DNA from: an uncultured candidatus Porisulfidus sp.
Lineage (GTDB): Bacteria; Pseudomonadota; Gammaproteobacteria; Poriferisulfidales; Poriferisulfidaceae
Direction of reading: 5' to 3'
NCBI GenBank assembly: GCA_965116025.1
Contig: OZ220480.1
Coordinates: forward strand, 193,335 to 257,334
DNA: 64,000 bases
The translations under genes and the position numbers were made by a program. Below the pieces are notes generated by a model. That model worked only from the letters and a program-made list of their open reading frames with translations, was not told where the DNA came from and made no database searches. Of the stretch, positions 1,690 to 56,093 are shown in pieces. Within the stretch, counting starts at the first letter, position 1. Each line of letters opens with the position of its first letter.

Positions 1690-1757
1690 CCTACAGTCTC
1701 GCGCGGATCAAGTGAGGAATTATAGCAAGTCGGGCGTGGTCGGGAGTGCCATTTCTA

Positions 1758-3527
1758 ATGCCATTGGCGCTATTGGCGGCGGGGCTTTCGGCGCTGGCGC
1801 TGCCGGCGCGGGCGGAGACGATCAACCTGTACGGGTGGCAGAACCACTCGTGGGAGTTCGTGGACATCGACGGCGGGCGCAGCTTCGACCGCATCCAGTC
1901 GAACGCCGGGAACATCGGCTTCTCGGCCAGCGTGGACACTGGCATGAGCGACATAAAGGTGAACCTGCAGTGCGAGCAGTTCACCTACTACAACCACTTC
2001 GCCGGCGGCACCGGCTGGTGCAACCGCAACTCCAAGATCGGGCTGGCGCACCCGATGGCCGGCGAGATCATGTTCGCCACCTGGCTGCTGCCGTACAACG
2101 AGGGCGTGGCCCAGTGGGTGGACCCGTTCTACGACGCCGGGGCCGACTCGCACACCAGCATCATGGGCTCGGTCGGGGCCAACACCATCTTCTACAACAC
2201 CGGCGACTTCGACCAGCAGGCGTCGGCGTCGGGGCCGGCGACCGGCTTCTCCGGGGCGGAGTTCAACTACGCCGGGGCCGGCTACGACACCGGCTTCAAC
2301 CGGCGCCAGGAGAACATCATCCAGTACTGGTCGCCGAACTGGAACGGCTTCGTGTTCCGCTTCGCCTGGACGGCCGGCAACCGCGACGAGACGAACGCGC
2401 CGACCGGCGGCGGGAAGATCGACCCGGTGATCCGCTCGAGCAGCCTGGCGTACACGAACGGCCCGCTGTGGCTGGCGGCGACCTGGCAGGACCACGAGGA
2501 CTGGACGGCGGTCTCGGTCGGGGAGATGGAGAGCTCGGACGCGGAGAGCTTCCGCCTGGCCGGGCGCTACATCATGGACCTGGGCGACGGCATGAGCGTT
2601 CAACTGTCGGCCATGTGGGAAACGCTGGAGTACGAGTTCCACGGCGTGACCACCATCGATAAGGCCATGAAGGCGTTCGGGTATGGGAATTTCATGGATT
2701 CTTACGAGTTGAGCGTCACGGATGCGGAGATAATGAAGAAGAAGACCCAAGGGCTGGCGCTCGATATCTTGACGGATGAGAAGGGCATGCTGATTCCTAT
2801 GGGGGACACGGCGCGGGGTTTATATGGGGAGCAGGTTAAAACCACTATGAGCCTGTACACCGCATACATGGGTGAGATAGACACCGTAACCTCCACCAGC
2901 TTGAACTTGGTCGCTGAACGCAGAACTGTGGTCGACTGGAACGACTATTACAAAGAGGCGCCTGATAATCCTGTTAAAGTCAGCACTACCGCCATGCGAA
3001 CCGGGTCCCAAAATGTCATGCTTTTCACGACCATGCTGAGCACGACTACGCTGAACGCGGCTAAAACGGCCGCGGAGGAGGCCAAAATGAAGGATATGGA
3101 TGATCGAACGGACGAGGACAAATCGAAAATCAAGTTCTATGACGATCTGGTCTCGATGGCGAAATCCCGAGCCCGCGACGAGAAGAGCATGGGCGGGAAC
3201 GTGAAGATCGAGCGAGACGCCTGGATGGTGTCGGGCAAGATCAAGTTCGGCGGCCCGCTGGACTTCCGCTTCTCCTACATGGACGCCGACGACCTGGAGC
3301 TGTCATGCAACTACTGCATGGGAGACTGGGACGAGACGGCGGCGGACGCCTGGAACGTCGGGGTGTTCTACACGATGCCGGCGGGAACCGAGCTGCGGCT
3401 GACGTATTCGGAGGTCAACAACGACGACAACGGGACCTACGGGCAGGGCATCTCGGGGACCGGCTTGGGAACGCCGGGGGCGGAGATCGAGATGTTCGCG
3501 CTGGGGATCGTGCACTGGTTCGACTGA
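1758..3527 (+). CDS. porin-like secreted/outer-membrane protein, family copy 1 (N-form A, cassette type X)
   Basis: ATG at 1758 with GGGAG 11 bp upstream (the ORF track starts at a GTG at 1746). Signal peptide MPLALLAAGLSALALPARA followed by ETINLYGWQNHSWEFVDIDGG. The conserved N and C frameworks are shared with 7 paralogs, with alternating hydrophobic beta-strand-like patterns and a terminal ...EIEMFALGIVHWFD. Confidence 0.8.
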   Translation: MPLALLAAGLSALALPARAETINLYGWQNHSWEFVDIDGGRSFDRIQSNAGNIGFSASVDTGMSDIKVNLQCEQFTYYNHFAGGTGWCNRNSKIGLAHPMAGEIMFATWLLPYNEGVAQWVDPFYDAGADSHTSIMGSVGANTIFYNTGDFDQQASASGPATGFSGAEFNYAGAGYDTGFNRRQENIIQYWSPNWNGFVFRFAWTAGNRDETNAPTGGGKIDPVIRSSSLAYTNGPLWLAATWQDHEDWTAVSVGEMESSDAESFRLAGRYIMDLGDGMSVQLSAMWETLEYEFHGVTTIDKAMKAFGYGNFMDSYELSVTDAEIMKKKTQGLALDILTDEKGMLIPMGDTARGLYGEQVKTTMSLYTAYMGEIDTVTSTSLNLVAERRTVVDWNDYYKEAPDNPVKVSTTAMRTGSQNVMLFTTMLSTTTLNAAKTAAEEAKMKDMDDRTDEDKSKIKFYDDLVSMAKSRARDEKSMGGNVKIERDAWMVSGKIKFGGPLDFRFSYMDADDLELSCNYCMGDWDETAADAWNVGVFYTMPAGTELRLTYSEVNNDDNGTYGQGISGTGLGTPGAEIEMFALGIVHWFD

Positions 3528-3549
3528 CCCGTTGGGTCATCCACGACAG

Positions 3550-3582
3550 CGAGCGGGCGCCTTCGGGCGCCCGCTTTCTTTG
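3550..3582 (+). terminator. rho-independent terminator of copy 1
   Basis: AGCGGGCGCC-ttcg-GGCGCCCGCT followed by TTCTTT, 23 bp after the stop codon. Confidence 0.7.
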
Positions 3583-4062
3583 AGGATCAGGATTCTCGAC
3601 TTGATCCGCCGCCACGAGGCAAATCGTGATGATGGCGGATCGCGAGAGCCAGATGTAACCGCTTCGGATGGTCGCGCGGGCGCTTGGAGTGATGCCACGA
3701 AAGCTGTGCGGGGCGTTCCGGCTTCAGGCTTTCATCAAAGATCGGAAACTCGATAGTTCCAGAGATCGATAGGCTGACCCCTGTTCGTCGCCACGCGGGA
3801 AGTCTGCTTGATCGAGGACGACGGGCCTCTCACCCTCTTTCCTCCCCGAGGCGCGCGCCGATCCACGCCCTCCGATTTCTCACCGCGTCTCTTATATCCA
3901 AGCGATATCAAGAATTCTCAGTCCACCGCACCACCTTGTGGTGGATCGGGTCATCCCGATCCGGTCTGCCGCGAGCGGATCGCCTTCCGGGCGCGTCGGA
4001 ACCAGGCCTCGCGCCGCCGGCGCTGGCCCGACTCTCGATCTGGTCGCGAAGCGCCGACCTCA

Positions 4063-4095
4063 AAGAAAGCGGGCGCCCGAAGGCGCCCGCTCGCT
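4063..4095 (-). terminator. rho-independent terminator of copy 2
   Basis: Mirror image of the same GC hairpin plus T-tract on the minus strand, immediately 3' of the convergent paralog. Confidence 0.7.
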
Positions 4096-4115
4096 GTCGT
4101 GGATGACCCAACGGG

Positions 4116-5947
4116 TCAGTCGAACCAGTGCACGATCCCCAGCGCGAACATCTCGATCTCCGCCCCCGGCGTCCCCAGGCCGGTCCCCGAGATGCCCTGC
4201 CCGTAGGTCCCGTTGTCGTCGTTGTTGACTTCCGAATACGTCAGCCGCAACTCGGTTCCCGCCGGCATCGTGTAGAACACCCCGACGTTCCAGGCGTCCG
4301 CCGCCGTCTCGTCCCAGTCCCCCATGCAGTAGTTGCACGACAGCTCCAGGTCGTCGGCGTCCATATAGGAGAAGCGGAAGTCCAGCGGGCCGCCGAACTT
4401 GATCTTGCCCGACACCATCCAGGCGTCCCGCTCGATCTTCACGTTGGAGCTCATGGTTTGCTTCAGCTTGGCGTCGGCGTATTCCGTCATCTTCTTCTCG
4501 TACTCCATCACCTTCTCGTTGTGCGGCTCCAGGGCGTACTCCCTCGCCTTCGCCACGTATTCCTTGTAGAAGTCCATGTCCGTCTTGTCATCCAGATACT
4601 TCGTGGTCGATGTCTTCAACTTGTTCAGGATCGTGGTGCTCAGCTTGGTAGTCAGGGCCGCTTTGTACGCCGTGTTCAATCCCCCAGTGGTGAACCTGTA
4701 GTAGCGATCGATCGCTGGGATGTTCTGATAATTACTCCAACTTTGATTATCGAAGTATTTTTTATAGGACCCCCCGTATCACTAGGACTTAAGTCGGTGG
4801 GCCATACGGCCAGACCGGCCATGTTGGTCCTCCATTTCCCGTTCTCGTCCGTCAGCAGCTCGACCGCGAGCCCCCCGGTCATCTGCGCCTCTATCAGCGG
4901 CTTCAGCTCCGCTTCGGTGGGCATCGTCGGCTTCGTCGGCATGTCCATGTCGGCGGGGGCCATGACCTTCATGTCGTAGTAGGTTTTCTCGAAATGGTTG
5001 ATGTTGGGATCGGTACCGCCGTACCCGAACGCCTTCATGGCCTTGTTGATGTCGGTCACGCCGTGGAACTCGTACTCCAAAGTCTCCCACATGGCCGACA
5101 GTTGAACGCTCATGCCGTCGCCCAGGTCCATGATGTAGCGCCCGGCCAGGCGGAAGCTCTCCGCGTCCGAGCTCTCCATCTCCCCGACCGAGACCGCCGT
5201 CCAGTCCTCGTGGTCCTGCCAGGTCGCCGCCAGCCACAGCGGGCCGTTCGTGTACGCCAGGCTGCTCGAGCGGATCACCGGGTCGATCTTCCCGCCGCCG
5301 GTCGGCGCCATCGTCTCGTCGCGGTTCCCGGCCGTCCAGGCGAAGCGGAACACGAAGCCGTTCCAGTTCGGCGACCAGTACTGGATGATGTTCTCCTGGC
5401 GCCGGTTGAAGCCGGTGTCGTAGCCGGCCCCGGCGTAGTTGAACTCCGCCCCGGAGAAGCCGGTCGCCGGCCCCGACGCCGACGCCTGCTGGTCGAAGTC
5501 GCCGGTGTTGTAGAAGATGGTGTTGGCTCCGACCGAGCCCATGATGCTGGTGTGCGAGTCGGCTCCGGCGTCGTAGAACGGGTCCACCCACTGGGCCACG
5601 CCCTCGTTGTACGGCAGCAGCCAGGTGGCGAACATGATCTCGCCGGCCATCGGGTGCGCCAGCCCGATCTTGGAGTTGCGGTTGCACCAGCCGGTGCCGC
5701 CGGCGAAGTGGTTGTAGTAGGTGAACTGCTCGCACTGCAGGTTCACCTTTATGTCGCTCATGCCGGTGTCCACGCTGGCCGAGAAGCCGATGTTCCCGGC
5801 GTTCGACTGGATGCGGTCGAAGCTGCGCCCGCCGTCGATGTCCACGAACTCCCACGAGTGGTTCTGCCACCCGTACAGGTTGATCGTCTCCGCCCGCGCC
5901 GGCAGCGCCAGCGCCGAAAGCCCCGCCGCCAATAGCGCCAATGGCAT
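4116..5947 (-). pseudogene. porin-like family copy 2 (N-form A, cassette type Y), frameshifted
   Basis: ATG at 5947 (MPLALLAAG...). The reading frame breaks near 4680-4800, giving two overlapping ORFs (4676..5947 and 4116..4679). Both halves are homologous to the intact copy 4. Low-complexity odd sequence sits at 4740-4800. Confidence 0.6.
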
Positions 5948-6171
5948 TAGAAATGGTATCGTAGGGCATCAGCAAATCGAAAAACTCTCCACGGAATATC
6001 TGGCCAAAACGTCGCTTCTCCCATATATTGTTCGGTGAAATTCCGCCTCCCAAACTCTCGATTTCCGTTCCCTAGATTCCGCATTGAATTGCGGCACCAT
6101 TTCCTTTGTGGGAAAATAAGACGCTATGGGACGGGATTATCAATGTTGGCAAGGAAACCGGGAGAGGGTTG

Positions 6172-7395
6172 ATGAGAGGAACTAGAGTCCCACCGCGAAT
6201 CGAGCGATTAAAGGTGCAGAACTTCCGCGCGTTGCGCGATGTGGAGCTAAACCTTACGCCGCTCACCGTGTTACTTGGCCCAAATGGCAGTGGAAAGTCC
6301 ACGATTTTTGATGTCTTCGCCTTTTTGGCAGAGTGTTTTGAGAGCGGGCTACGTCGAGCGTGGGAAAAACGTGGCAAAGCTCGGGAACTTAGGTCGCGGG
6401 GCGGAGAGGGTCCTATATTGATTGAAATCGCATATCGCGAAAAACCGCGCACACCCTTGATCACGTATCACCTTCAAGTGGACGAGAAAAATGGCCGACC
6501 TCGCGTGGTCTGCGAATGGCTCCGATGGAAGCGGGGGCGCTACGGGCAACCGTTCAAATTTCTCGATTACGCGGACGGAGTTGGGCAGGTCATCTCGGGT
6601 GAGATGCCTGACGCGCGGGCTGAGCGGATAGAGATCCCTTTGAGTTCTCCTGATACGCTCGCGGTTAACGCGCTTGGCCAACTGGCGGAAAATTCTCGTG
6701 TCGTCGAGCTGAGAGATTTCATCATGGGATGGCATGTGTCCTACTTGTCAGCCGAGGATACGAGAGGACAACCGGAAGCGGGGCCACAGGAACGCCTGAG
6801 CAGGACAGGAGACAATCTCGCTAACGTGATTCAATATCTGTCCGAAGAACATCCAGAACTTTTGGAGTCCATTCTTGGCAGCATCAGAGAAAGGATCCCG
6901 AAAGCCCAGAGCGTGGTGGCGGACCAGATGCCGGACGGAAGGTTGTTGCTGAAAATCAAGGATGCCCCATTCGCTGACCCCGTCATGGCGCGCTTCGCGT
7001 CCGATGGCACACTTAAAGTGCTCGCCTATCTAGTCTTGTTGCGTGATCCAACCCCTCCTCCTTTTATTGGCATTGAGGAGCCGGAGAACTTCCTGCATCC
7101 ACGCCTGCTTCACGGTTTGGCGGAAGAATGCCGAACCTCCTCCGAGGCCACACAGGTCCTCGTGACCACCCATTCTCCTTTTTTCCTTGATGCGCTTCGT
7201 CCCATGGAAGTTCGGGTGTTGTGGCGCGACGAATTCGGTTACACGAGATGCGACCCCTTGGATGAGAACAAAAAAATTTTGGCGTTTATGGAAGCGGGCG
7301 CCCAGCTTGGAGATCTTTGGATGGAAGGACATTTCGGGGTTGGAGATCCGCTGACTTCGGAAGGAATGGCCATGCCGGGAAGAGGCGGGAGCTGA
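6172..7395 (+). CDS. OLD/ABC-type (AAA_21-like) ATPase
   Basis: Walker [10 protein letters not shown] near the N-terminus. Walker B/D-loop [13 protein letters not shown] and H-loop LVTTHSPFF near the C-terminus. ATG at 6172 is preceded by GGGAGAGG (the ORF track begins at 6106). Confidence 0.7.
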
Positions 7396-7396
7396 C

Positions 7397-8014
7397 ATGC
7401 CCGCGTCTCATTTGGAGTTCCTCGTGGAGGAGCGTTCCATGGAAGCGTTTCTCGTTGCTTGGCTACCAAAGTTTCTGCCGGAGGGCTGCACTTTCAAGGT
7501 CTATGCGCACCAAGGCAAAAACGCGTTGTTGAGAAAAATCGAAGATCGACTCGGAGCATATAAGGCATGGATGCCAAACGAATGTCGTATCGTGGTGGTA
7601 GTGGACCGCGACCGGGATGCGTGCGATGAACTCAAGCTCAAGATGGAGCGATTCTGTGAGAAAGCGGGATTGCGGTCGAGACGGGCCGCTGATGGTTCGG
7701 ACTGGCAAGTGGTGACGCGGATAGCCATAGAAGAGCTTGAAGCATGGTATTTTGGGGACTGGCAGGCGGTGTTGGCCGCTTTTCCGGGTGTCGCGGAGAA
7801 TATCCCAGACCGCGCGGCTTACCGGGATCCAGATGCGATTCAAGGTGGAACTTGGGAGGCATTCGAGCGGATTCTCCAGAAACATGGATATTTCGCGCAA
7901 GGACTGGCAAAAGCGCAGGCCGCTAGCGAGATTGGCCGACATATCGACCCTGTTCGCAATCGGTCCCGCAGTTTTATCGTTTTTCGCGATGCCATCGTCG
8001 ATGCCACCACATGA
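7397..8014 (+). CDS. DUF4276-like (Toprim-like) partner protein of the ATPase
   Basis: Start lies 1 bp after the ATPase stop (translationally coupled). The acidic motifs EFLVEERSMEAF, VVVVDRDRD and IEELEAWYF match my recollection of the DUF4276 consensus; this is not confirmed by a search. Confidence 0.55.
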   Translation: MPASHLEFLVEERSMEAFLVAWLPKFLPEGCTFKVYAHQGKNALLRKIEDRLGAYKAWMPNECRIVVVVDRDRDACDELKLKMERFCEKAGLRSRRAADGSDWQVVTRIAIEELEAWYFGDWQAVLAAFPGVAENIPDRAAYRDPDAIQGGTWEAFERILQKHGYFAQGLAKAQAASEIGRHIDPVRNRSRSFIVFRDAIVDATT

Positions 8015-8174
8015 ACATGCCATAGAAGCTATCGTGTTTCCGCAATTGAAATATCTTTGCTATGGCTATAGGAAAGCCGGTTTTCAGGACCCTCTGACCT
8101 CTGCGGTAAAATAATCGCCCAGCATGATTTTCTGGGCCCGCCGAGCCCGAAGCCGGACTTTCAGGAGACGTTAC

Positions 8175-9308
8175 TTGGCCAAACGCGCGTTGCTCGCTCT
8201 CGAAAACGGCGCGTTGTTTTTCGGAGATTCCATCGGGGCGAACGTCACCGCCATCGGGGAGGTCGTCTTCAACACCTCCATCACGGGCTACCAGGAAATC
8301 TTGACTGACCCGTCGTATTGCCGCCAACTGATCACGCTGACGCATCCGCATATCGGGAACGTCGGGGCGAATGACGAAGACAGCGAATCCGGCGCTCCGG
8401 CGCGCGCCGCTGGCCTGATCGCGCGCGATGTCCCTGCGCGCGCGAGCAACTGGCGCGCCAAGCGGTCTTTAGGGGATTTTCTTGACGAGCACGGACTGCC
8501 TGGGATCGTGGGCATCGACACGCGCCGCCTCACGCGAATCCTGCGCGACCAAGGAGCCCAGTCGGGTTGCCTCACGACCGATGTCTCCGACCCGGACCAA
8601 GCGGTCGATCAGGCCCGCGCGTTCCCGGGGCTAGCGGGAATGGATTTGGCGCGAGAAGTCTCCACGAAGGAGTCGTACGAGTGGGACGAGGGACCTTGGG
8701 GGGCAATGCCAGACGAGCTGCCGCCCGCGCGATATCGAGTTGTGGCTTACGACTACGGGATCAAGCGAAACATTCTCCGCCTCCTGCGCGCGCGCGGATG
8801 CGCGGTCACGGTCGTGCCGGCCAAGACCCCGGCATCCGAGGTGCTGAGCCGGGATCCAGATGGAGTTTTTCTATCCAACGGACCTGGAGATCCAGATCCA
8901 TGCACGTACGCCCGGGACACGATCCGAGAATTGATCCAGACCCGGACTCCGATGTTCGGCATCTGCCTTGGTTGCCAGTTGCTCGGCTTGGCCAACGGAG
9001 CGCGCACGGTCAAGATGAAGACCGGGCATCACGGAGCCAACCACCCAGTTCTCGAGATGGACACGGGCCGGGTTCTGATCAGTAGTCAGAACCATGGTTT
9101 CGCGATTGAGGAAGAGTCTCTTCCAGAATGCCTGCGCTTGACCCACCGCTCGCTTTTCGACGGCACCGTGCAAGGCATCCGGCATGTCGAGGCCCCAGCG
9201 TTCGCTTTCCAAGGACACCCGGAAGCGAGCCCCGGGCCACGCGACTTGGCTGGCTTGTTCGATCAGTTCATCGACCTGATGCGGCATCGCCCCGGACGAC
9301 TTGGTTAA
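8175..9308 (+). CDS. carA: carbamoyl-phosphate synthase small subunit
   Basis: [20 protein letters not shown]...[19 protein letters not shown], and a GATase domain with the GICLGCQLL catalytic Cys. Probable TTG start at 8175 with AGGAG 5 bp upstream (E. coli carA also uses UUG). An alternative ATG lies at 8124. Confidence 0.85.
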
Positions 9309-9312
9309 CGCC

Positions 9313-12300
9313 ATGGCGAAGCGGACCGATATCGAGAGCGTCCTCGTGATCGGGGCAGGACCAATCGTCATCGGCCAAGCCTGCGAATTCGATTACTCCG
9401 GGGCGCAAGCTTGCAAGGCGCTACGCGAGGAAGGCTACCGCGTCATCTTGGTCAACTCCAACCCCGCCACCATCATGACCGACCCGCAGATGGCGCAATC
9501 CATTTATATCGAGCCAGTCGAGTGGCGAACGCTGTCGCGCGTCATTGAGCGTGAGAAGCCGGACGCGTTGTTACCAACCATGGGCGGACAGACCGCGTTG
9601 AACTGCACGCTGGACCTGCATCGAGAGGGAACGTTGCAGGCTCATGGCGTGGAGTTGATTGGCGCCTCCCTTGAAGCCATCGCGATGGCCGAGGACCGGC
9701 AACTGTTCCGGGAGGCTATGGAGGAGATCGGGCTGGAGCAGGCGCGGTCCCGGGTGGTGCGCGGCGTGGAGGAGGCGCTGGGCTTTCAGCCCCACATCGG
9801 CTATCCCGTCATCGCGCGGCCCTCGTTCACCTTGGGCGGAACGGGAGGGGGCGTGGCCAGGAGCGAGGAGGAGCTCAGGCGCGTCGTCGCGCACGGGTTG
9901 GATCTGTCGCCCACCCGCGAGGTCCTTTTGGAGGAATCTCTTCTGGGCTGGAAGGAATTCGAGATGGAGGTGGTCCGCGACGCCAAGGACAACTGCATCA
10001 TCGTCTGCTCGATCGAGAATCTGGATCCGATGGGGGTGCACACCGGAGACTCGATCACGGTCGCGCCAGCGCAGACCTTGACGGACAAGGAATACCAGCG
10101 GATGCGCGACGCCTCCATCGCGGTATTGCGCAAGATCGGCGTGGACACTGGTGGTTCCAACGTGCAGTTCGCGACGCATCCAGGAACTGGGCGATTGCTC
10201 ATCATCGAGATGAACCCGCGCGTCTCGCGCTCCTCGGCGCTGGCCTCCAAAGCGACCGGATTTCCTATCGCCAAGGTGGCGGCCCGCCTGGCCGTGGGCT
10301 ACACCCTGGACGAGTTGCGCAACGACATCACGGACGGCGCGACTCCGTGCTCGTTCGAGCCGACTCTGGATTACATCGTGACCAAGATCCCGCGCTTCAC
10401 GTTCGAGAAGTTTCCGCAGGCGGAACCGCTCCTGACGACCCAGATGAAATCGGTCGGGGAGGCGATGGCGATCGGGCGCACCTTCCAGGAATCCTTGCAG
10501 AAGGCGTTGCGTAGCTTGGAGACTGGGCAATGCGGACTGGATCCGCTTGGCCCGATGGATCGGGAAGAGCGGAAAGATCGGCTAGTCCACCCGGATCCGC
10601 ATCGGCTGAGACATGTCGCCGACGCCTTGCGCGAGGGCTGGAGCCTGGAGGAGATCCACGAACTGACCGGCATCGATCCGTGGTTCATCGCGGAAATCGA
10701 GGATCTTGTGGCGCGTGAGCGAGCCCTGTCGGGAAGGGACTTGGACGACTTGTCGAGGGAAGAGTTGCTCGTCCTGAAGCGCGCCGGGTTTTCGGACCGG
10801 CGCCTAGGGCAATTGCTTCATGTGGATGAGGAAGACGTGCGCGCGCGGCGTCACGCGCAGGGCCTGCGGCCAGTATACAAGCGGGTCGACACTTGCGCGG
10901 CGGAGTTTCCGACTTCCACGGCCTATCTCTACTCCACCTACGAGGAGGAATGCGAGGCCCGACCGACGAACGCGCGGAAAGTGGTGGTGCTCGGCGGCGG
11001 CCCAAACCGAATCGGACAGGGCATCGAATTCGACTACTGTTGCGTGCATGCCGCGCAGAGCGCGCGCGAGCTGGGCTTCGAGACCATCATGGTCAACTGC
11101 AATCCAGAGACGGTCTCCACCGATTACGACACTTCCGATCGTCTGTATTTCGAGCCTCTCGCGCTGGAGGACGTGCTGGAGATCCTGCATGTCGAGCGTC
11201 CGTACGGAGTGATCGTCCAGTTCGGGGGGCAGACTCCCCTGAAACTCGCTCAAGGATTGGCGCGGGCGGGGATCCCGATCCTGGGCACGTCCCCGGACGC
11301 GATCGACGCTTCCGAGGATCGAGAGCGCTTTACCGGAGTGCTTGATCGCCTAGGCCTGCGTCAGCCGCCGGGGGGAACGGCGCGCGACCGCGAGGGAGCG
11401 CTGAGGTTGGCCCGCGAACTAGGCTATCCTTTGGTCGTGCGGCCTTCCTACGTGCTGGGTGGGCGGGCGATGGAGATCGTGTTCGACGAAGTGGAACTCG
11501 AGCGCTACATCAAGGACGCGGTCCAAGTGTCCGACCAGACCCCGGTGTTGCTCGATCGCTATTTGCAGGACGCGGTGGAAGTCGATGTCGACGTGGTGCG
11601 CGATGGGGAGGAAACGCTGATCGGAGGGATCATGCAACACATCGAGCAGGCCGGGATCCACTCCGGGGATTCGGCCTGCTCCCTGCCCGTCTACTCGATC
11701 GAGGAACCGGTCCTGGATATCCTGCGCGACCAAGCCACGGCGCTGGCGCGCGCGCTGGAGGTGGTGGGCCTGATGAATATTCAGTTCGCGGTGCGGGGAG
11801 ACTCGATCTACGTGATCGAGGCCAACCCCCGCGCCTCGCGTACCGTGCCGTTCGTTTCCAAAGTGACCGGTCGCTCGCTGGCGCGGATCGCGACCGCCTG
11901 CATGCTGGGCCGGTCCTTGCGCGAGCAAGACTGCCGCGAGGAGGCGCGGCTGGAATACTTCGCGGTTAAGGAAGCGGTGTTTCCCTTTCTCAAATTCTCG
12001 GGGGTCGACCCGATCTTGGGCCCGGAGATGAAGTCGACCGGCGAGGTGATGGGGGTTGGCGAGCGCTTCGAGGAGGCGTTCGCCAAATCGCAACGCGCGG
12101 CCGGGGTGCGCATCCCAACTGGCGGGCGAGCCCTGATCAGCGTGCGAGACCAGGATAAGCCTGGATGCTCTCGGTTGGCGCGCGAACTGCTCGCGGCTGG
12201 CTTCGAACTGGTGGCGACCCACGGAACGGCGGAACACTTGCGCCAGGAAGGCCTGGACTGCGCTGGCATCAACAAGGTGGCGCAAGGCTCGCCTCATGTC

Positions 12301-12552: not shown

Positions 12553-12561
12553 ACCGGGAGA

Positions 12562-13041: not shown

Positions 13042-13118
13042 TCAGGACCGCGTAGACCGCTCGCTTACCACCATCCCGCCGCTCTTCACGGGCGTACAAT
13101 GACTCTTGCGTTCACGAG

Positions 13119-43953: not shown

Positions 43954-44061
43954 TGGAGAATCCTCCCTGAAAAGATAGCGACTAGTTTACCAAATCCCTA
44001 GCCACGCGAGTTTCTGGGTTTCTCGATTTGCTGATGCTCTACGATACCATTTCTAATCCCA

Positions 44062-45948: not shown

Positions 45949-45969
45949 CCGGTTGGGTCACCCACGATA

Positions 45970-46002
45970 GCGAGCGGGCGCCTTCGGGCGCCCGCTTTCT
46001 TT
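45970..46002 (+). terminator. rho-independent terminator of copy 5
   Basis: AGCGGGCGCC-ttcg-GGCGCCCGCT followed by TTCTTT. Confidence 0.7.
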
Positions 46003-46487
46003 GAGGATCAAGATTCTCGACTTGATCCGCCGCCACGAGGCAAATCGTGATGATGGCGGATCGCGAGAGCCAGATGTAACTGCTTCGGATGGTCGCGCGG
46101 ACGCTTGGAGTGATGCCACGAAAGCCGTGCGGGGCGATCCGGCTTCAGGCTTTCATCAAGGATCGGAAACTCGATAGTTCCAGGGATCGATAGGCTGACC
46201 CCTGTTCGTCGCCGCGCGGGAAGTCTGCTTGATCGAGGACGACAAACCTCTCACTCCGTTTCTTCCTCGCGGCGCGCGCTAACCCGAACCCTCCGATTTC
46301 CCGCCGCCTCGCTTGGATTCCAGCGATGTCAAGAATTCTTGGTCCACCACCTTGTCGTGGATCGGGTCATCCCGATCTGGCCTGCCGCGAGCGGATCGCC
46401 TTCCGGGTGCGTGGGGGCGCGTCGGAACCAGGCCTCACGCCGCCAGCGCTGGACCCACTCTCGATCCAACCGGAAAACACCAGTCTC

Positions 46488-46520
46488 AAAAGAAAGCGGG
46501 CGCCCGAAGGCGCCCGCTCT
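46488..46520 (-). terminator. rho-independent terminator of copy 6
   Basis: Mirror GC hairpin plus T-tract on the minus strand. Confidence 0.7.
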
Positions 46521-46541
46521 CGTCGTGAATGATCCAACGGA

Positions 46542-48449: not shown

Positions 48450-49181
48450 TTTTTGACTCCTGAAAAATTAGTCTCCGCAAGGCAATCACTCCTCACGAAC
48501 AATGTGGTGAAATTACCACATTTCGGCGTGGATTATATAGCCTAGAGATGATGTCAATCGGCCATGCTGTTGTTTTTTAGAAACAAGTTTGGTTTAGGTA
48601 AGGTGGATGTCGATATCAGCATCTTTCTAATTTAAAAACAACAGGATTTCTTTACCTACTGCATTGCCTCGATAGGCGTATAGATATCCGAAACTGATAA
48701 TGTTTTCTAGCTTTAGGAGATTTTCTGGAGTCATAGCGAGATGATCACTTCCCATGGATATGGTAGTAAAACGACCACATTTCTGCACGGTTATAGAACC
48801 TCTGGACACAGGCAAACGTCATGCCTATTGTTAGATTTTAGTGACAGGAGCGAATGAGAAAACCAGAAGCTGGTTTCAGTTTTCTATTGTTCTAAAAACA
48901 ACAACATATCTTTCCACCAAAATTTCTATCGGATAGGATATAGTGAACGTATCAAGTTCGCCGTTATCAACTCGGCAACTGATTAGCGAATTGGCCTACA
49001 AAAATGAACGGAGCGGCGACGAAAATGCGTTCAAGCCAATTCGATTTTGCAACTGGCTTGGCACGGGTTTTCATGGTCCAAATATAGTAATGAATCCAAT
49101 TATCAATAGTGACCGTCGCTTGCTCCCGCCTGAAATCTCGTTATCAGAGCTCGGAAGAGCGACGCTCAAACTTAATCCTTA

Positions 49182-50357
49182 ATGAAGGAGAAAATAAAAA
49201 TGACAGCAAGAGACTTTGAGATGGTTGAGGAATCTGGCCGTTCGGTCCCTTCCAAAACGTACGCTAGCTACGTCGGACTCGATGTCCACAAGGACAGCAT
49301 CGCCGTCGCCGTCGCTCATGCGGGCCGAGGAGCTCCAGAATCCTGGGGTACCATACCGAACACGAAGAAAGCGATCGCAAAACTCGTGGATCGGCTGTAT
49401 GCGAAGAACGAGACTTTCCTGATTTGCTACGAGGCTGGCCCATGCGGATACACCCTGTATCAGAACCTGATTGCCATGGGGGTAGATTGCCGGGTCGTGG
49501 ATCCTCCAAGAAACGAAAAGATCAAGACGGACCAGCGGGACGCGTTACGTTTGGCACGGCTTTTGCGCGCTGGAGAACTGGTAGAGATTTGGGTGCCGGA
49601 TCAAGAGCAAGAAGCGATTCGCGACCTGTGCCGTTGTCGAGCCGATTTCATGGTGCAGCAACGGAAACTGCGCCAGCAATTCAACGCTTTCTTGCTACGC
49701 CATGGACACCATTGGCCAACAAACTGGAAACGCTGGACGCAAAAACATCTCGATTGGTTGGAAAAGCTCGATTTCCCGTATATTTTCATGAGCGAGGTTC
49801 GAGATGAATATATCTCGGCCGTCCGCCTGTCCGCGTCAAGAATTCTTGATCTCGACAAAAAAATCGACAAGGCTGTGCAGGCTTGGTCGTGGGCGCCAGT
49901 GGTCAACAGCCTGAAAGCGTTGCGTGGGTTCGACCAGTTATCCGCGGTTATGTTGCTATCCGAATTGGGTGATATCAGTCGTTTCGAATCTCCTAGTCAA
50001 CTTATGGGCTACTTGGGACTGGTTCCGTGCGTGTATAGCTCTGGGGCGTATCACCGCACCGGGGGCGCCACGCGAGCGGGAAACCGTCATGCCCGGCAAG
50101 TATTGATCGATTCGGCTTGGTGCTACCGGTTCCCCGCTCGTCAAACCGCCTACATGAGCCGCAAATCGGAAGGCGCATCCGCATACGCCCAAACTATTTC
50201 GTGGAAAGCGCAAAAACGATTGTGCGGACAATATCGGAAGTTGACCACGGCGGGAAAGAGCCAGAAAGTTGTTTGCGTGGCGATTGCGAGAGAATTGTCG
50301 GGGTTTGTCTGGGATATCGTCTGTCACGAAAAAGCCCGCCTAAGCCGAGTGAGATAG
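49182..50357 (+). CDS. IS110-family transposase
   Basis: YVGLDVHKDSIAVAV...ICYEAGPCGYTLY, with a C-terminal IS116/IS110/IS902-type domain. Embedded in an AT-rich segment whose IS boundaries are undetermined. Confidence 0.85.
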   Translation: MKEKIKMTARDFEMVEESGRSVPSKTYASYVGLDVHKDSIAVAVAHAGRGAPESWGTIPNTKKAIAKLVDRLYAKNETFLICYEAGPCGYTLYQNLIAMGVDCRVVDPPRNEKIKTDQRDALRLARLLRAGELVEIWVPDQEQEAIRDLCRCRADFMVQQRKLRQQFNAFLLRHGHHWPTNWKRWTQKHLDWLEKLDFPYIFMSEVRDEYISAVRLSASRILDLDKKIDKAVQAWSWAPVVNSLKALRGFDQLSAVMLLSELGDISRFESPSQLMGYLGLVPCVYSSGAYHRTGGATRAGNRHARQVLIDSAWCYRFPARQTAYMSRKSEGASAYAQTISWKAQKRLCGQYRKLTTAGKSQKVVCVAIARELSGFVWDIVCHEKARLSRVR

Positions 50358-50608
50358 GAGGTATATGCCGAGACTTGTCGCAAAAATCAGGGTGCTTCAG
50401 TCTGTCGGAGAATCCTTGTAATTTCTATATCGGTGCGAGACCGTGTATGCTTGATTCGCATATTTGAACTCGTGATCCATGCTATTAGACAAAGGTTCAG
50501 CTCCGCGACTTCTACAGGTCACATCGGTAACCAACCCGAGTTTCATCCATGGCCTGCTATCGCAAATGATTGGAGTATCCTGGTTTTTGCGCCGCGTCTA
50601 GGGGGCAG

Positions 50609-51507
50609 CTACTTGATGCTCTCGAGCCAATGTCCTTCGGAGACAATCCTGATTGGAAATTCTTGGGTACGCAACGTCACAGCCTTCTCAATTTTTCGGC
50701 CATACGCGGACTGTATCCAAGTACCCTCAGCATAGGATCCGATCACCAAATAATCCGTTGCTCTTGTGGGGGATTTTTGGCAAATTCCCTGCCGTGTTTG
50801 GATTTCACGCTCGCACTGTATGCGGCTACCATAGAAAAACTTTCCAGTCAGGCAAAATTTGCGACCCGCGAATACGACTTCCGGGGGTGGGTCATCCAGC
50901 CATAGCGTTGTCGCATTCAGGCACTCCCCAACTTCCGTCTTCCCGCCGACCAAGCCGCTCAGCAGTTGTAGCAATTGCATAGTTCTATCGGTATCTCCCG
51001 CGTTCTGCCCCCAAAAAGAGTTCAGCTTCTCTCGGAACGCCTTGGCCACTGGATTGTTGAATGTCTCTTCATGATCTATCAGCCAAGTACGCAACGCCCG
51101 TGTCTCGCTTTCAGCAATTTTTCCATCCGCGATCAAGCCGCGGCATAGCCCCAGCAATTCGGGGATGTAACCACCGTCCAATTCGTTGATTGCAATTCGA
51201 CCGTGACCAAATGATTCCTCTCCACCCGAATAATCATCCAAAAGAATATGAACTAGTTGCGTCAGTTCCTCGCTTTCACTGGTATCCAGCGTCTCGTCCT
51301 TGAGCATTTGTCCGACGCGCGTCCGCAGAATTTCCACGAGAGAATTCCCTGTCTCTTGATCGATCAGCCAAGCATAAAGCGATTCCACTTCGCTTTGGAC
51401 GATTTTTCCGTCCGCGATCAGGCCCTTGCATAGGCCTATTAGTTCTGAACTTTGGCGTCCATTCAAACGACCACGATGGTACTTCAAGAAATTCGATTGA
51501 TCAGACA
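50609..51507 (-). CDS. protein with two TerB-like repeats and a C-terminal BRCT domain
   Basis: Repeats LIGLCKGLIADGKIVQSEVESLYAWLID and LLGLCRGLIADGKIAESETRALRTWLID. C-terminal region FAGRKFCLTGKFFYGSRIQCEREIQTRQGICQKSPTRATDYLVIGSYAEGTWIQSAYGRKIEKAVTLRTQEF is BRCT-like. Start MSDQ at 51507. The ORF-track extension to 51811 is antisense read-through into copy 7. Confidence 0.6.
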
Positions 51508-51590
51508 TTAGGAAGAGCGACGTTTTGGCCAGATATTCCGTGGAGAGTTTTTCGATTTGCTGATGCCCTACGATACCATTTCTAATCCCA

Positions 51591-53486
51591 TTGACGCTGC
51601 TGGCGGCGTCGCTGTCGGCGCTGTCGCTGTCGGCGCGGGCGGAGACGATCAACCTGTACGGGTGGCAGAACCACTCGTGGGAGTTCGTGGACATCGACGG
51701 CGGGCGCAGCTTCGACCGCATCCAGTCGAACGCCGGGAACATCGGCTTCTCGGCCAGCGTGGACACCGGCATGAGCGACATAAAGGTGAACCTGCAGTGC
51801 GAGCAGTTCACCTACTACAACCACTTCGCCGGCGGCACCGGCTGGTGCAACCGCAACTCCAAGATCGGGCTGGCGCACCCGATGGCCGGCGAGATCATGT
51901 TCGCCACCTGGCTGCTGCCGTACAACGAGGGCGTGGCCCAGTGGGTGGACCCGTTCTACGACGCCGGGGCCGACTCGCACACCAGCATCATGGGCTCGGT
52001 CGGCGCGAACACCATCTTCTACAACACCGGCGACTTCGACCAGCAGGCGTCGGCGTCGGGGCCGGCGACCGGCTTCTCCGGGGCGGAGTTCAACTACGCC
52101 GGGGCCGGCTACGACACCGGCTTCAACCGGCGCCAGGAGAACATCATCCAGTACTGGTCGCCGAACTGGAACGGCTTCGTGTTCCGCTTCGCCTGGACGG
52201 CCGGCAACCGCGACGAGACGATGGCGCCGACCGGCGGCGGGAAGATCGACCCGGTGATCCGCTCGAGCAGCCTGGCGTACACGAACGGCCCGCTGTGGCT
52301 GGCGGCGACCTGGCAGGACCACGAGGACTGGACGGCGGTCTCGGTCGGGGAGATGGAGAGCTCGGACGCGGAGAGCTTCCGCCTGGCCGGGCGCTACATC
52401 ATGGACCTGGGCGACGGCATGAGCGTTCAATTGTCGGCCATGTGGGAGACTTTGGAGTACGAGTTCCACGGCGTGACCACGGTCGAGAAGGCGATGGCGG
52501 CGTTCGGCTACGGGAACTTCGCGTCCTCCTACGCCGAGCCGATCTACGCCATGGACATGGCCACCAAGAAGGTGGACGAGACGGTCATGGACCCCACCCA
52601 GGCCGAGATCGACGCCCAGATGACCCGCGGGCTCGCCATCCAGCTGCTCACGGATGACCGAGGACGGGAGAAAGAGGACGATGATGGCAACAGCTTTTTG
52701 GCTACCGCTCTAGGCCAGGAAATAGTGACGACGGCCGCTCCCAACAAGCCCGCCGAGTGGACGTTCAAAGAAATAGATGCCAGTGCTGACCTGCCAACGA
52801 CTACGGTCATAGGAGAGTACCGGCAGTATCTTAGTACCGCCCTCAAGAAAATCGCCGGTCCGGGCGGACATCAAACCTCGGGGCTCATCTACAGCGTGAA
52901 TCCCGTGAAGCATCGCCAGTCGCAGCCGTTCTGGACCACCCGGCTGACCTCCACGGAGCTCACGGTCCTGAAGCTGGGCTACGCGACGACCATGATCGCC
53001 TCATCCGGGGAGAATCAGAAAGTGTTTGGCGACCCTGCGCTGTACACGGCGATCATGAACGCGGCGAAGGAAAATGCCAAAACGAAAAAGCAGATGGACA
53101 AGGAGGCGGAGATGAAGAAGGTGGAGGACGCCCGGATGGCCAAGAGCATGGGCTCGAACGTGAAGATCGAGCGGGACGCCTGGATGGTGTCGGGCAAGAT
53201 CAAGTTCGGCGGCCCGCTGGACTTCCGCTTCTCCTACATGGACGCCGACGACCTGGAGCTGTCATGCAACTACTGCATGGGAGACTGGGACGAGACGGCG
53301 GCGGACGCCTGGAACGTCGGGGTGTTCTACACGATGCCGGCGGGGACCGAGCTGCGGCTGACGTATTCGGAGGTCAACAACGACGACAACGGGACCTACG
53401 GGCAGGGCATCTCGGGGACCGGGCTGGGGACGGCTGGCGCGGAGATCGAGATGTTCGCGCTGGGGATCGTGCACTGGTTCGACTGA
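51591..53486 (+). CDS. porin-like family copy 7 (N-form A, cassette type Z)
   Basis: Same 5' box as copies 2 and 5. No ATG (TTG at 51591). Intact frameworks. Confidence 0.7.
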   Translation: MTLLAASLSALSLSARAETINLYGWQNHSWEFVDIDGGRSFDRIQSNAGNIGFSASVDTGMSDIKVNLQCEQFTYYNHFAGGTGWCNRNSKIGLAHPMAGEIMFATWLLPYNEGVAQWVDPFYDAGADSHTSIMGSVGANTIFYNTGDFDQQASASGPATGFSGAEFNYAGAGYDTGFNRRQENIIQYWSPNWNGFVFRFAWTAGNRDETMAPTGGGKIDPVIRSSSLAYTNGPLWLAATWQDHEDWTAVSVGEMESSDAESFRLAGRYIMDLGDGMSVQLSAMWETLEYEFHGVTTVEKAMAAFGYGNFASSYAEPIYAMDMATKKVDETVMDPTQAEIDAQMTRGLAIQLLTDDRGREKEDDDGNSFLATALGQEIVTTAAPNKPAEWTFKEIDASADLPTTTVIGEYRQYLSTALKKIAGPGGHQTSGLIYSVNPVKHRQSQPFWTTRLTSTELTVLKLGYATTMIASSGENQKVFGDPALYTAIMNAAKENAKTKKQMDKEAEMKKVEDARMAKSMGSNVKIERDAWMVSGKIKFGGPLDFRFSYMDADDLELSCNYCMGDWDETAADAWNVGVFYTMPAGTELRLTYSEVNNDDNGTYGQGISGTGLGTAGAEIEMFALGIVHWFD

Positions 53487-53508
53487 CCCGTTGGGTCACT
53501 CACGGCAA

Positions 53509-53540
53509 TGAGCGGGCGCCTTCGGGCGCCCGCTTTCTTA
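53509..53540 (+). terminator. rho-independent terminator of copy 7
   Basis: GCGGGCGCC-ttcg-GGCGCCCGC followed by TTTCTT. Confidence 0.7.
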
Positions 53541-54030
53541 TGGGCTCAGGAATTCCTGACAGGTCCGCCACCAGGCGGGACCAAGACGATGGCCAGCCTC
53601 GAGACCGAGACGGACCCGCTTCGGGCGGTCGCGCAGGCGCTTGGAGTGATGCCACGAAAGCCGTGCGGGACGCTCCGGCTTCAGGCTTTCATCAAGGATC
53701 GGAAACTCGATAGTTCCAGGGATCGATAGGCTGACCCCTGTTCGTCGCCGCGCGGGAAGTCTGCTTGATCAAGGACGACGGACCTCTCACTCCCTTTCCT
53801 CCTCGAGACGCGCGCCGATCCACGCCCTCCGATTTCTCACCGCGTCTCTTAGATCCAAGCGATATCAAGAATTCTCGGTCCACCGCACCACCTTGTGGTG
53901 GATCGGGTCATCCCGATCCGGTCTGCCGCGAGCGAATGGCCTTCCGAGCGTGTGGCGGGCGCGTCGAAGCCAGGCCTCGCGTCCGCCGGCGCTGGCCCGA
54001 CTCCCGATCTGGCCGCGAAACGCCGGACCC

Positions 54031-54063
54031 AAAGAAAGCGGGCGCCCGAAGGCGCCCGCTCGC
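54031..54063 (-). terminator. rho-independent terminator of copy 8
   Basis: Mirror GC hairpin plus T-tract. Confidence 0.7.
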
Positions 54064-54084
54064 TATCGTGGATGACCCAACGGG

Positions 54085-55998
54085 TCAGTCGAACCAATGC
54101 ACGATCCCCAGCGCGAACATCTCGATCTCCGCCCCCGGCGTCCCCAGCCCGGTTCCCGAGATGCCCTGCCCGTAGGTCCCGTTGTCGTCGTTGTTGACTT
54201 CCGAATACGTCAGCCGCAGCTCGGTCCCCGCCGGCATCGTGTAGAACACCCCCACGTTCCAGGCGTCCGCCGCCGTCTCGTCCCAGTCTCCCATGCAGTA
54301 GTTGCATGACAGCTCCAGGTCGTCGGCGTCCATGTAGGAGAAGCGGAAGTCCAGCGGGCCGCCGAACTTGATCTTGCCTGACACCATCCAGGCGTCCCGC
54401 TCGATCTTGACATTGGAGCCCATGCTCTTGGCCATCCGGGCCGCCTCCACATCCTTCACCTTCTTGTCATGAGCCGTTTTCGCGGCCGTCTCCTTCATCT
54501 CCTTGGCATTGGTCTTCGCCTGCGTCATGATCGCCGTGTACAGTTGTTGGAAACCCCACACCGGATCGCTTGTCGAAGGACTGGTGTCTGGGCCTGGCCG
54601 CGCGAGGGCCGTGAGCTCCGTGGAGGTCAGCCGGGTGGTCCAGAACGGCTGCTTCTGGCGAAGCTCCACGTAATCCCCGCCAGCGTTATATGCAACTCTG
54701 TTGTCAAAAAGAAATTTGTTGTACTCTCCGTACACCGTGGTCGTCGGAAGGTTGCTGTTATTGGTACTGGTGAATCTCCACGCGGTGGGATCGCCCGGCT
54801 TGTCGTTCGTGTTTATGGTATGGGCTATGGCGTTAATTACTCCCTGTTGATCGGTAGCTACAGGATTGCTTGCGCTTGCCCTATACAGTTTAAACAATCC
54901 CCGGTCATCCGTGATCAACTCGATGGCGAGCCCACGGGTCTTCTGCGCGTCGATCTCGGCCTGGGTGGGGGCCGCCACCTCCCCCATCGGGTCCACCTTC
55001 TTGGTGGTCTCGTCCATGGCGTAGATCGGCTCGGCGTAGGAGGACGCGAAGTTCCCGTAGCCGAACGCCGCCATCGCCTTCTCGACCGTGGTCACGCCGT
55101 GGAACTCGTACTCCAAAGTCTCCCACATGGCCGACAATTGAACGCTCATGCCGTCGCCCAGGTCCATGATGTAGCGCCCGGCCAGACGGAAGCTCTCCGC
55201 GTCCGAGCTCTCCATCTCCCCGACCGAGACCGCCGTCCAGTCCTCGTGGTCCTGCCAGGTCGCCGCCAGCCACAGCGGGCCGTTCGTGTACGCCAGGCTG
55301 CTCGAGCGGATCACCGGGTCGATCTTGGGGCCGGCCGCGTAATTACCTTTGGCGTCCTTGAGCGCGTGGGTCTCGTCGCGATTGCCGGCCGTCCAGGCGA
55401 AGCGGAACACGAAGCCGTTCCAGTTCGGCGACCAGTACTGGATGATGTTCTCCTGGCGCCGGTTGAAGCCGGTGTCGTAGCCGCCCCCGGCGTAGTTGAA
55501 CTCGTTGCCGGAGAAGCCAGTGCCAGGATTGGACGCCGACGCCTGCTGGTCGAAGTCGCCGGTGTTGTAGAAGATGGTGTTGGCCCCGACCGAGCCCATG
55601 ATGCTGGTGTGCGAGTCGGCCCCGGCGTCGTAGAACGGGTCCACCCATTGGGCCACGCCCTCGTTGTACGGCAGCAGCCAGGTGGCGAACATGATCTCGC
55701 CGGCCATCGGATGCGCCAGCCCGATCTTGGAGTTGCGGTTGCACCAGCCGGTGCCGCCGGCGAAGTGGTTGTAGTAGGTGAACTGCTCGCACTGCAGGTT
55801 CACCTTTATGTCGCTCATGCCGGTGTCCACGCTGGCCGAGAAGCCGATGTTCCCGGCGTTCGACTGAATGCGGTCGAAGCTGCGCCCGCCGTCGATGTCC
55901 ACGAACTCCCACGAGTGGTTCTGCCACCCGTACAGGTTGATCGTCTCCGCCCGCGCCGACAGCGACAGCGCCGACAGCGACGCCGCCAGCAGCGTCAA
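54085..55998 (-). CDS. porin-like family copy 8 (N-form B, cassette type Z')
   Basis: Intact frameworks. The N-terminus reads ...TTGIQKPFLIPLTLL, with ATT in place of the ATG of copy 6 and no RBS. Confidence 0.7.
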   Translation of the reverse strand: MTLLAASLSALSLSARAETINLYGWQNHSWEFVDIDGGRSFDRIQSNAGNIGFSASVDTGMSDIKVNLQCEQFTYYNHFAGGTGWCNRNSKIGLAHPMAGEIMFATWLLPYNEGVAQWVDPFYDAGADSHTSIMGSVGANTIFYNTGDFDQQASASNPGTGFSGNEFNYAGGGYDTGFNRRQENIIQYWSPNWNGFVFRFAWTAGNRDETHALKDAKGNYAAGPKIDPVIRSSSLAYTNGPLWLAATWQDHEDWTAVSVGEMESSDAESFRLAGRYIMDLGDGMSVQLSAMWETLEYEFHGVTTVEKAMAAFGYGNFASSYAEPIYAMDETTKKVDPMGEVAAPTQAEIDAQKTRGLAIELITDDRGLFKLYRASASNPVATDQQGVINAIAHTINTNDKPGDPTAWRFTSTNNSNLPTTTVYGEYNKFLFDNRVAYNAGGDYVELRQKQPFWTTRLTSTELTALARPGPDTSPSTSDPVWGFQQLYTAIMTQAKTNAKEMKETAAKTAHDKKVKDVEAARMAKSMGSNVKIERDAWMVSGKIKFGGPLDFRFSYMDADDLELSCNYCMGDWDETAADAWNVGVFYTMPAGTELRLTYSEVNNDDNGTYGQGISGTGLGTPGAEIEMFALGIVHWFD

Positions 55999-56093
55999 TG
56001 GGATTAGAAATGGTTTTTGAATCCCAGTTGTGGCAAAATTAGTCTAGAGTTTCCCGTTAGACGGGTTTCCGAATAAACTGACTGGTCAAAATC

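Follow-up and report, generated by a model that had tools for sequence, protein, structure and literature searches.

Scattered porin copies, a single expression site and a candidate RNA-guided IS110-family recombinase in a sponge-associated gammaproteobacterium

How does a single family of porin genes come to interrupt a bacterial chromosome at several housekeeping junctions? The question is raised by a 64,000-nt stretch of an uncultured Candidatus Porisulfidus sp. (contig OZ220480.1, positions 193,335 to 257,334; assembly GCA_965116025.1), hereafter the window, which carries eight paralogous Porin_4 genes arranged as four convergent (tail-to-tail) pairs. A sequence-only reading of the window placed these pairs at three junctions, mlaC/carA (pair 1), maf-NERD/tRNA-Ser-dapB (pair 2) and yccA/grxD (pairs 3 and 4), which we confirm along with the neighbors that it named, and took each ~4.4-kb pair for a self-contained module, with promoter boxes at its ends, that had been copied to new sites. 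We find another reading better and, on balance, probable: an RNA-guided inversion system with one expression site and a set of silent porin copies.

Each porin consists of a constant, putatively barrel-forming N-terminal part of ~320 aa, a variable middle of 150–250 aa and a constant C-terminal part of ~130 aa. In the DNA, the first ~950 nt and the last ~350 nt of the copies are 93–100% identical, and the intervening 450–770 nt are mostly unalignable between most copies; the variable regions of 1A and 2A are 99% identical and those of 1B and 2B 62%. The PF13609 match, obtained for four copies (E = 4e-19 to 7e-18, 66–70 bits against a cut-off of 27), accordingly falls in two stretches on either side of the variable middle. 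A profile search against PDB sequences returned no solved relative of the porin, and an AlphaFold model built on seven paralogues had a predicted local distance difference test score (pLDDT) of 32, too low for use. The pairs and their spacers are laid out as follows (ORF, open reading frame).

1746-3527, plus strand: porin 1A, N-terminal type I, variable region alpha; motif CATTTCTAAT at 1750-1759
3528-4115: spacer of pair 1, terminator hairpins in mirror image at either end; shares homology with the spacers of the other three pairs
4116-5955 (ORFs to 5947), minus strand: porin 1B, type I, variable region beta-like; site at 5946-5955
25470-27268 (ORF from 25439), plus strand: porin 2A, type II; site at 25470-25479
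27269-27894: spacer of pair 2
27895-29816, minus strand: porin 2B, type II; site at 29807-29816
44048-45948, plus strand: porin 3A, type I; site at 44048-44057
45949-46541: spacer of pair 3
46542-48449, minus strand: porin 3B, type II, beginning MKKPFLIPL; site at 48430-48439
51577-53486, plus strand: porin 4A, type I, joined to the end of the recombinase cassette that lacks the promoter; site at 51577-51586
53487-54084: spacer of pair 4
54085-56012, minus strand: porin 4B, type II; site at 56003-56012

The pairs thus extend over 1746-5955, 25470-29816, 44048-48449 and 51577-56012, with unit lengths between the outer homology boundaries of 4206, 4347, 4392 and 4436 bp, and porin 1B is broken into two overlapping ORFs (4676-5947 and 4116-4679). 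All four pairs share a spacer of ~590 bp, whose mean column identity is 87% and in which a terminator hairpin follows each stop codon. The spacers are mosaics among the pairs and have no counterpart in relatives; because the spacer is confined to this lineage, whole gene-spacer-gene units multiplied within it. The proposal of a copied unit is right to this extent, but the unit is not self-contained: it holds neither promoter boxes nor a transposase ORF, it lacks a target-site duplication, and the only recombinase linked to the porin family sits between pairs 3 and 4.

The similarity of all eight copies stops at one point, N/ATTTCTAAT, within the signal peptide. It starts at the P-F-L-I codons, with the sequence CCATTTCTAAT, and the DNA upstream is unrelated, so that the unit ends share no promoter box and the homology begins inside the coding sequence. 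When up to one mismatch is allowed, CATTTCTAAT occurs eight times in the window, every time at a porin 5′ end, against 1.4 occurrences expected. We write the porin site as ATTT-CT-AAT, and in its longer form as CCATTTCTAATCC. The nearest relatives, with genomes of 1.6–1.9 Mb, are Candidatus Porisulfidus and other gammaproteobacteria associated with sponges, and the same boundary is found among them: for 62 porin 5′ ends from 33 sources, paralogues within a source have a median identity of 92.5% over the 120 nt downstream and of 26% upstream. In the genus-wide comparison the run of identity ends 0–4 nt ahead of TTTCTAAT in 40 of 57 pairs, and the left flank of the boundary is A-rich, with the consensus AAWAYCA. 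A further TTTCTAAT, at 48623 within the recombinase cassette, is not conserved in relatives, and we therefore treated it as a chance occurrence. Exceptions to the unrelated upstream DNA are a stretch of 66 nt ahead of 1B (5956-6021, minus strand), which is 97% identical to that ahead of 4A, and 30 nt of the same stretch (44018-44047) that also lie upstream of 3A. These sequences upstream of 1B and 3A correspond to the promoter-less end of the recombinase cassette.

One porin copy per genome bears a conserved expression site, and in the window this is 3B alone. Across the genus, the site consists of TTGACA, 16–17 nt, GACAAT, a leader of ~110 nt and AGGAGTCC, followed by ATGAAAAAA joined to CCATTTCTAAT; at least 180 nt of promoter, leader, AGGAGTCC and ATGAAAAAA are kept across 11 genomes. 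The window version has its ATG at 48447-48449, a ribosome-binding site AGGAG at 48457-48461, a leader of ~80 nt, TATAAT at 48532-48537 and TTGACA at 48552-48557, with A-rich inverted boxes farther upstream. The other copies are presumably silent. The DNA upstream of 1A is without the conserved expression site; neither a ribosome-binding site nor an ATG was found upstream of 3A or of 4B; and 3A and 4A have an in-frame stop six codons upstream (in 3A a TGA, counted from P-F-L-I).

Two further observations concern this region. All genomes aligned have two conserved inverted boxes (GTTGTTTTTT ... AAAAAAACAAC) ahead of the porin promoter, and the window has a third similar copy (regions 48560-48640 and 48878-48905); a regulator or the recombinase may bind to these boxes. 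In the relative OZ243950, the porin that adjoins the promoter-less cassette end (locus L004 near 6877, equivalent to L029 near 3893) reads AAAAAAATGAAAAA up to the boundary and CC beyond it, one A fewer than the expression site, and its ATG is therefore out of frame. This may be an A tract of variable length that acts as a second on/off layer.

The expression site lies at one end of a 3.1-kb cassette between 3B and 4A, which also contains a recombinase gene, a structured RNA and a gene on the opposite strand, and whose G+C content is 0.50–0.52 compared with ~0.62 elsewhere.

48440-48600, minus strand: expression site, joined to porin 3B; conserved in 11 genomes
49200-50357, plus strand: IS110-family DEDD recombinase, 385 aa, PF01548 and PF02371
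50366-50606, plus strand: structured RNA directly 3′ of the recombinase gene, with a long closing stem and two arms
50420-50427 and 50481-50489: candidate guides AAUUUCUA and GCUAUUAGA, in the internal loop of arm 1
50609-51499, minus strand: gene of unassigned function with a weak BRCT-like C-terminus, beside the recombinase in most relatives

Both Pfam domains of the recombinase score past their cut-offs (DEDD_Tnp_IS110, PF01548, E = 9e-17; Transposase_20, PF02371, E = 2e-17). The translation carries GLDVHK, YEAG(P), KTDQRDA and GLVPCVYSSG, that is, the DEDD-type motifs and the G--P----SG motif defined for the IS110 family (PMC11187229), the catalytic positions being assigned by eye from the translation rather than through a structural alignment. 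The window has one copy of the gene, and homologues at 71–82% identity occupy the same neighborhood, between or next to porins, in 13 loci of relatives and two metagenome contigs. The opposite-strand gene is missing in locus L020 and beside more distant recombinase homologues. Those distant homologues (62–66% identity) lie with a homologous RNA between kdsA and rpmF in two further species (L048-L051), with no porin nearby, a fixed position that argues for a resident enzyme acting in trans and not for a hopping element. One of these loci, L050, contains the half-site-like GCATTTCTAG ~210 nt downstream of its left guide. Cassettes range in size across genomes from 3.1 kb to ~13 kb (L032/L035, L046, L047, L043), and that of L043 has gained toxin-antitoxin genes, an IS481-type element and a second IS110-type gene.

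With a marker gene as reference, the cassette lies one way in two loci (L010, L004) and the other way in three (L012, L001, L019). In each orientation the expression site joins a different porin, and the junctions fall exactly at the motif, so that inversion of the cassette is recorded in the comparison between species; switching is presumably ongoing. A scan of metagenomes for the expression-site junction yielded two contigs only, both ending inside porins, and two strains with nearly identical recombinases are colinear, with no inversion variant.

The RNA element, ~235 nt long, stands directly 3′ of the recombinase gene on the same strand, once per recombinase, at all 19 loci, and is conserved more strongly than the flanking genes. 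In the consensus structure 98% of cells are paired, as against 34–44% in slid controls, 14 pairs have compensatory changes as against 1–5 in those controls, and none of 500 shuffles matched the observed values. The window copy has the same fold (z = -3.3). On the 5′ side, the internal loop of arm 1 reads GGCAUUUCUA, the top strand of the porin site; on the 3′ side it reads UGCAAUUAGAC, the complement of TCTAATTGCA. In relatives the loop presents CAUUUCUA (8 nt) and, opposite it, the complement of TCTAATTGC(AT) (9–11 nt; UCUAAUUGC), with right-hand guide forms of GCAGUUAGA or GUGAUUAGA; the distant kdsA/rpmF RNAs keep the left guide CAUUUCUA and have an altered right guide. The two loop guides therefore match both strands of the site and overlap at the CT core of ATTT-CT-AAT (TCTA), the bottom-strand match being 5′ of the top-strand match. 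In the target loop of IS110-type bridge RNAs or seekRNAs, the match to the bottom strand likewise lies 5′ of that to the top strand, and the core is covered by both (PMC11208160, PMC11187229). Exchange at the CT core would give exactly the boundary observed. Two other candidates were set aside: a window-specific RNA-site match of 8–9 nt, considered as a donor guide, falls in the closing stem, and the DNA upstream of the recombinase, where a bridge RNA might have been sought, has a leader of ~120 nt that is only moderately conserved and shows no site match.

The gene order of relatives accounts for two of the three junctions at once. The genes that flank the pairs encode MlaC, an AAA_21/AAA_15 ATPase with a DUF4276 protein, Maf, a NERD helicase, DapB, YccA (Bax1-I) and a glutaredoxin; carA is 80% identical to the carbamoyl-phosphate synthase (CPSase) small-chain gene of a relative. 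In OZ243950 the order is grpE-dnaK-dnaJ-dapB-tRNA-Ser-carA-carB-greA ... nusA-infB-rbfA-truB-NfeD-maf (minus strand) directly followed by mlaC-murA-hisG, with no porin and with dapB, tRNA-Ser and carA lying within 304 bp; maf and mlaC are likewise adjacent in TsSOB. The window reads murA-mlaC, pair 1, carA ... maf-NERD, pair 2, and tRNA-Ser-dapB in the opposite orientation.

5956-25469: inverted segment of 19.5 kb by order relative to relatives, containing the HEC-01 ATPase and DUF4276 genes, carA ... maf and the NERD helicase
33058-33145: tRNA-Ser(tga)

On either side the segment stops exactly at a 5′ motif, that of 1B (5946-5955) and that of 2A (25470-25479). Since flipping 5956-25469 restores the order of the relatives, mlaC/carA and maf/tRNA-Ser are two new junctions of one inversion. 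To judge by this comparison of gene order, the underlying insertion points are tRNA-Ser/carA and maf/mlaC, so that the sequence-only reading was right in counting three points but not in which they are: there are three ancestral points overall, two of them now linked by the inversion. At the third, yccA is in three relatives the immediate neighbor of a small SCO4226-like gene ahead of grxD, and the same relatives have a porin cluster on the other side of the grxD-rnt-argG block; no simple series of single inversions leading to the yccA/grxD arrangement could be reconstructed. Relatives are thus without porins at these places (OZ243950, TsSOB and the three with yccA), which bears out the synteny comparison that had been suggested, and none of 36 porin loci of relatives is within 10 kb of mlaC, carA, maf or dapB. 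The empty junctions of relatives contain no site-like motif, and flanking direct repeats, which insertion of a module had led one to look for, do not exceed chance in 30-nt or 150-nt flanks of the units. One-step replicative transposition as the cause of the inversion was also rejected, because it predicts inverted copies of one pair, whereas pair 2 runs in the same order as pair 1 and 2A is the counterpart of 1A. Only 60 nt (1690-1749) separate the mlaC start codon from the boundary of 1A, and the mlaC-murA promoter must therefore lie in those 60 nt or inside the porin gene.

We propose that the eight genes are alternative alleles of one outer-membrane porin, of which one copy at a time, now 3B, would be joined to the expression site (promoter, leader, ribosome-binding site and ATG AAA AAA). 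The structured RNA would guide an IS110-family recombinase resident in the host to ATTT-CT-AAT at the start of every copy, where the enzyme would recombine the DNA. Because the motif is present at both outer ends of a pair in inverted orientation, each pair would be an invertible two-allele cassette, and the 3.1-kb recombinase cassette between 3B and 4A would be invertible too. If the copy at the expression site took part in an inversion with any copy lying in the opposite orientation, a different allele would receive the promoter and start codon. Since the copies are scattered along the chromosome, the same reaction could flip housekeeping DNA, and the carA ... maf inversion between the 1B and 2A sites would be such an event. 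Homologous recombination between the constant parts would further shuffle and homogenize the copies.

Several observations weigh against this proposal. The promoter spacer of 3B is only 14 nt long and was missed by a consensus scan, and 1A and 1B (internal ATG) and 2A (upstream TTG) have possible starts of their own. In the window, the guides AAUUUCUA and GCUAUUAGA match CCATTTCTAATCCC over only 7 and 6 nt, and the third to fifth bases of the right half of the guide do not follow the site. When k-mers of the RNA were matched against the 90 nt that surround each site, only the two arm-1 guides came up consistently, and arm 2, which is itself conserved, yielded no donor-type guide. Rfam gives no match in the cassette even at E = 5, the whole window yielding only the tRNA. 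Exchange confined to the core does not account for the shared 66-nt and 30-nt upstream stretches. Finally, there are signs of a second process: 2A, 3B and 4B are 100% identical across 600 nt, and both copies of pair 1 are type I and both of pair 2 type II, a mosaic arrangement. From these patterns, ordinary homologous recombination clearly also acts on the porin copies and could alone give some inversions.

Homologous recombination is the foremost alternative, although as a complete explanation we consider it unlikely. Under it, RecA-dependent crossing-over and gene conversion in the 1-kb constant 5′ parts would have done all of the rearranging, and the recombinase and RNA would be bystanders. 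The near identity of the constant parts and the mosaic spacers are what it predicts, and the type I/I and II/II pairs, with 1A resembling 2A and 1B resembling 2B, fit a crossover between inner copies downstream of the variable region. It offers no account, however, of similarity that ends at the same nucleotide in 62 copies from more than 12 genomes, and it leaves unexplained both the A-rich consensus of the left flank and an RNA loop beside the recombinase that spells both strands of the boundary.

A selfish IS110 element that targets porin starts, the porins having arisen by ordinary duplication and each being expressed alone, seems to us a good deal less likely again. Specific targets chosen by an RNA are known for IS110 elements (PMC11208160, PMC11187229), the cassette is low in G+C, and homologues of the recombinase at 56–60% identity in other bacteria are annotated as transposases. 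Against this, the gene appears to be single-copy and is in the same neighborhood in at least 13 genomes that differ by 18–29% in protein sequence. A mobile element would be expected in multiple copies or within a split target; here two outward-facing porins flank the cassette as targets in inverted orientation, with no split target, and the expression site lies inside it. The distant homologues, moreover, are fixed at kdsA/rpmF in two species.

It is very improbable that the 4.4-kb pairs are mobile modules, self-contained and carrying a promoter box at either end: a unit present four times with its lineage-specific spacer, at junctions that lack porins in relatives, speaks for it, but no upstream box is shared, promoter and start codon occur on one copy only, neither target-site duplications nor an internal transposase accompany the units, and two of the three junctions are products of one inversion. 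We give equally little credence to an assembly artefact, in which the inversion or the number of pairs would result from mis-joining across near-identical inverted repeats, since, even though ~1-kb inverted repeats of 95–99% identity flank the segment and metagenome contigs of relatives routinely break at porin starts, the window belongs to one contig of 2.02 Mb, the four pairs can be told apart by their variable regions, their spacer variants and their unique flanks, and similar architectures occur in several independently assembled complete chromosomes.

One relative differs in ways that touch the proposed RNA-guided system. OZ251520 (L016) carries two convergent porin pairs side by side. 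Each of their four copies retains an ATG of its own, the motif is ACGTCCCTAAT in place of CCATTTCTAAT, and the similarity of the copies runs out to TAAATG. Neither a recombinase nor the RNA was found within 10 kb of these pairs, and the lineage may have lost or changed the system.

The insertion points near mlaC and dapB also carry accessory genes: a coupling-protein-like gene, an IS4-type transposase, the HEC-01 pair and the NERD helicase. The AAA_21/AAA_15 ATPase and DUF4276 genes at 6106-8014 match the PADLOC candidate defence system HEC-01 (E = 2e-154 and 1.5e-80). OZ243950 has a different variant (37% and 27% identity) in another place, after greA, and the two therefore look like independent acquisitions. 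The NERD and UvrD-like helicase gene beside maf (23331-25010, minus strand) matches PADLOC RTasNERD-Hel (E = 1.6e-55); it is not at maf/mlaC in two relatives examined, one of which has two unrelated ORFs there and the other, from reading its sequence, an apparent small toxin-antitoxin pair. At 30068-33033, beside tRNA-Ser-dapB, an IS4-type transposase accompanies a type IV coupling-protein-like (TraG/TrwB-like) gene. A coupling-protein-like gene (79% identity) also follows dapB in another relative, and OY764335 has Cas9-Cas1 in that position (loci L041 and L042). By these gene contents, the region downstream of dapB/tRNA-Ser is a variable island hotspot. A second DDE transposase (59720-60601, minus strand) lies between the grxD-argG block and the gene at 62231, a position at which relatives have a putatively silent porin.

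Known systems share parts of this architecture. The Piv invertase, a protein of 315–330 aa, switches the tfpQ/tfpI pilin genes in Moraxella lacunata and M. bovis. As in the window, a host-kept DEDD recombinase of the IS110/Piv kind acts at sites inside the coding sequence of a surface protein, and variable parts are joined to one expressed 5′ end. Piv inverts one 2-kb segment, whereas here eight alleles in four pairs are spread over at least 54 kb among housekeeping genes, the exchanged 5′ part comprises only promoter, leader and three codons, and the recombinase, at 385 aa, belongs to another, longer subgroup. A guide-like RNA accompanies the recombinase here; in the literature searched, no RNA guide is described for Piv. 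Piv is related to IS110 (PMC11187229). The bridge RNA or seekRNA systems of IS621 and ISEc21 can insert, excise and invert DNA and, like the window, combine an IS110-family recombinase with a structured RNA from the adjacent non-coding region (PMC11208160, PMC11208158, PMC11187229). Unlike those multi-copy insertion sequences, the system described here appears to be single-copy and is syntenic across species, its RNA is downstream of the gene, donor-binding guides were not identified, and the two partners in recombination seem to be sites of one kind; at the sequence level the IS621 and window recombinases are only marginally similar (E = 0.18).

Other switches resemble the system in layout and differ from it in enzyme. 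At the sap locus of Campylobacter fetus, general homologous recombination within ~600 bp of 5′ homology inverts a promoter segment. There too, surface-protein homologues have conserved 5′ parts, and one promoter lies on an invertible segment between opposed homologues; the window differs in having a dedicated recombinase and a breakpoint confined to one short motif. The G segment of phage Mu and the C segment of P1 are inverted by the serine recombinases Gin and Cin, and the R64 shufflon by the tyrosine recombinase Rci, all at protein-recognized sites. These share tail-to-tail variable segments in an invertible cassette with the constant part and promoter outside; they differ in that the recombinase protein itself recognizes the sites and in that each is one compact locus. 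The vsa genes of Mycoplasma pulmonis, switched by the tyrosine recombinase HvsR, are clustered, and no RNA takes part. They resemble the porins in having one expression site, many silent genes without a 5′ end and inversion at a short site near the coding start, in contrast to which the enzyme in the window is of another type, the genes are scattered and an RNA appears to be involved.

In the literature searched, bridge RNAs are not linked to phase or antigenic variation, and no system of this kind is described; bridge recombinases have so far been known from selfish insertion sequences and as engineering tools. With confidence that stands near the midpoint, we suggest that a host-domesticated, bridge-RNA-guided IS110 recombinase serves here as a cellular switch, in which one guide loop would address many scattered porin alleles, promoter and start would be moved by inversion, and the chromosome order of a reduced-genome sponge symbiont would be reshaped as a by-product. 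If true, this would be the first natural cellular function of an RNA-guided recombinase outside transposition, and it would raise the possibility that invertases of the Piv type also work with RNA guides. Since enzyme, guide loop and sites have each been defined, the system is directly testable. For annotation, seven of the genes labelled as porins may be silent cassettes, and what is labelled an 'IS110 transposase' may serve as a housekeeping switch enzyme. For the symbiosis, the system would imply that one porin is under strong pressure to vary, with phages or host recognition as possible sources, and it would supply a concrete cause for breaks of synteny in small symbiont genomes.

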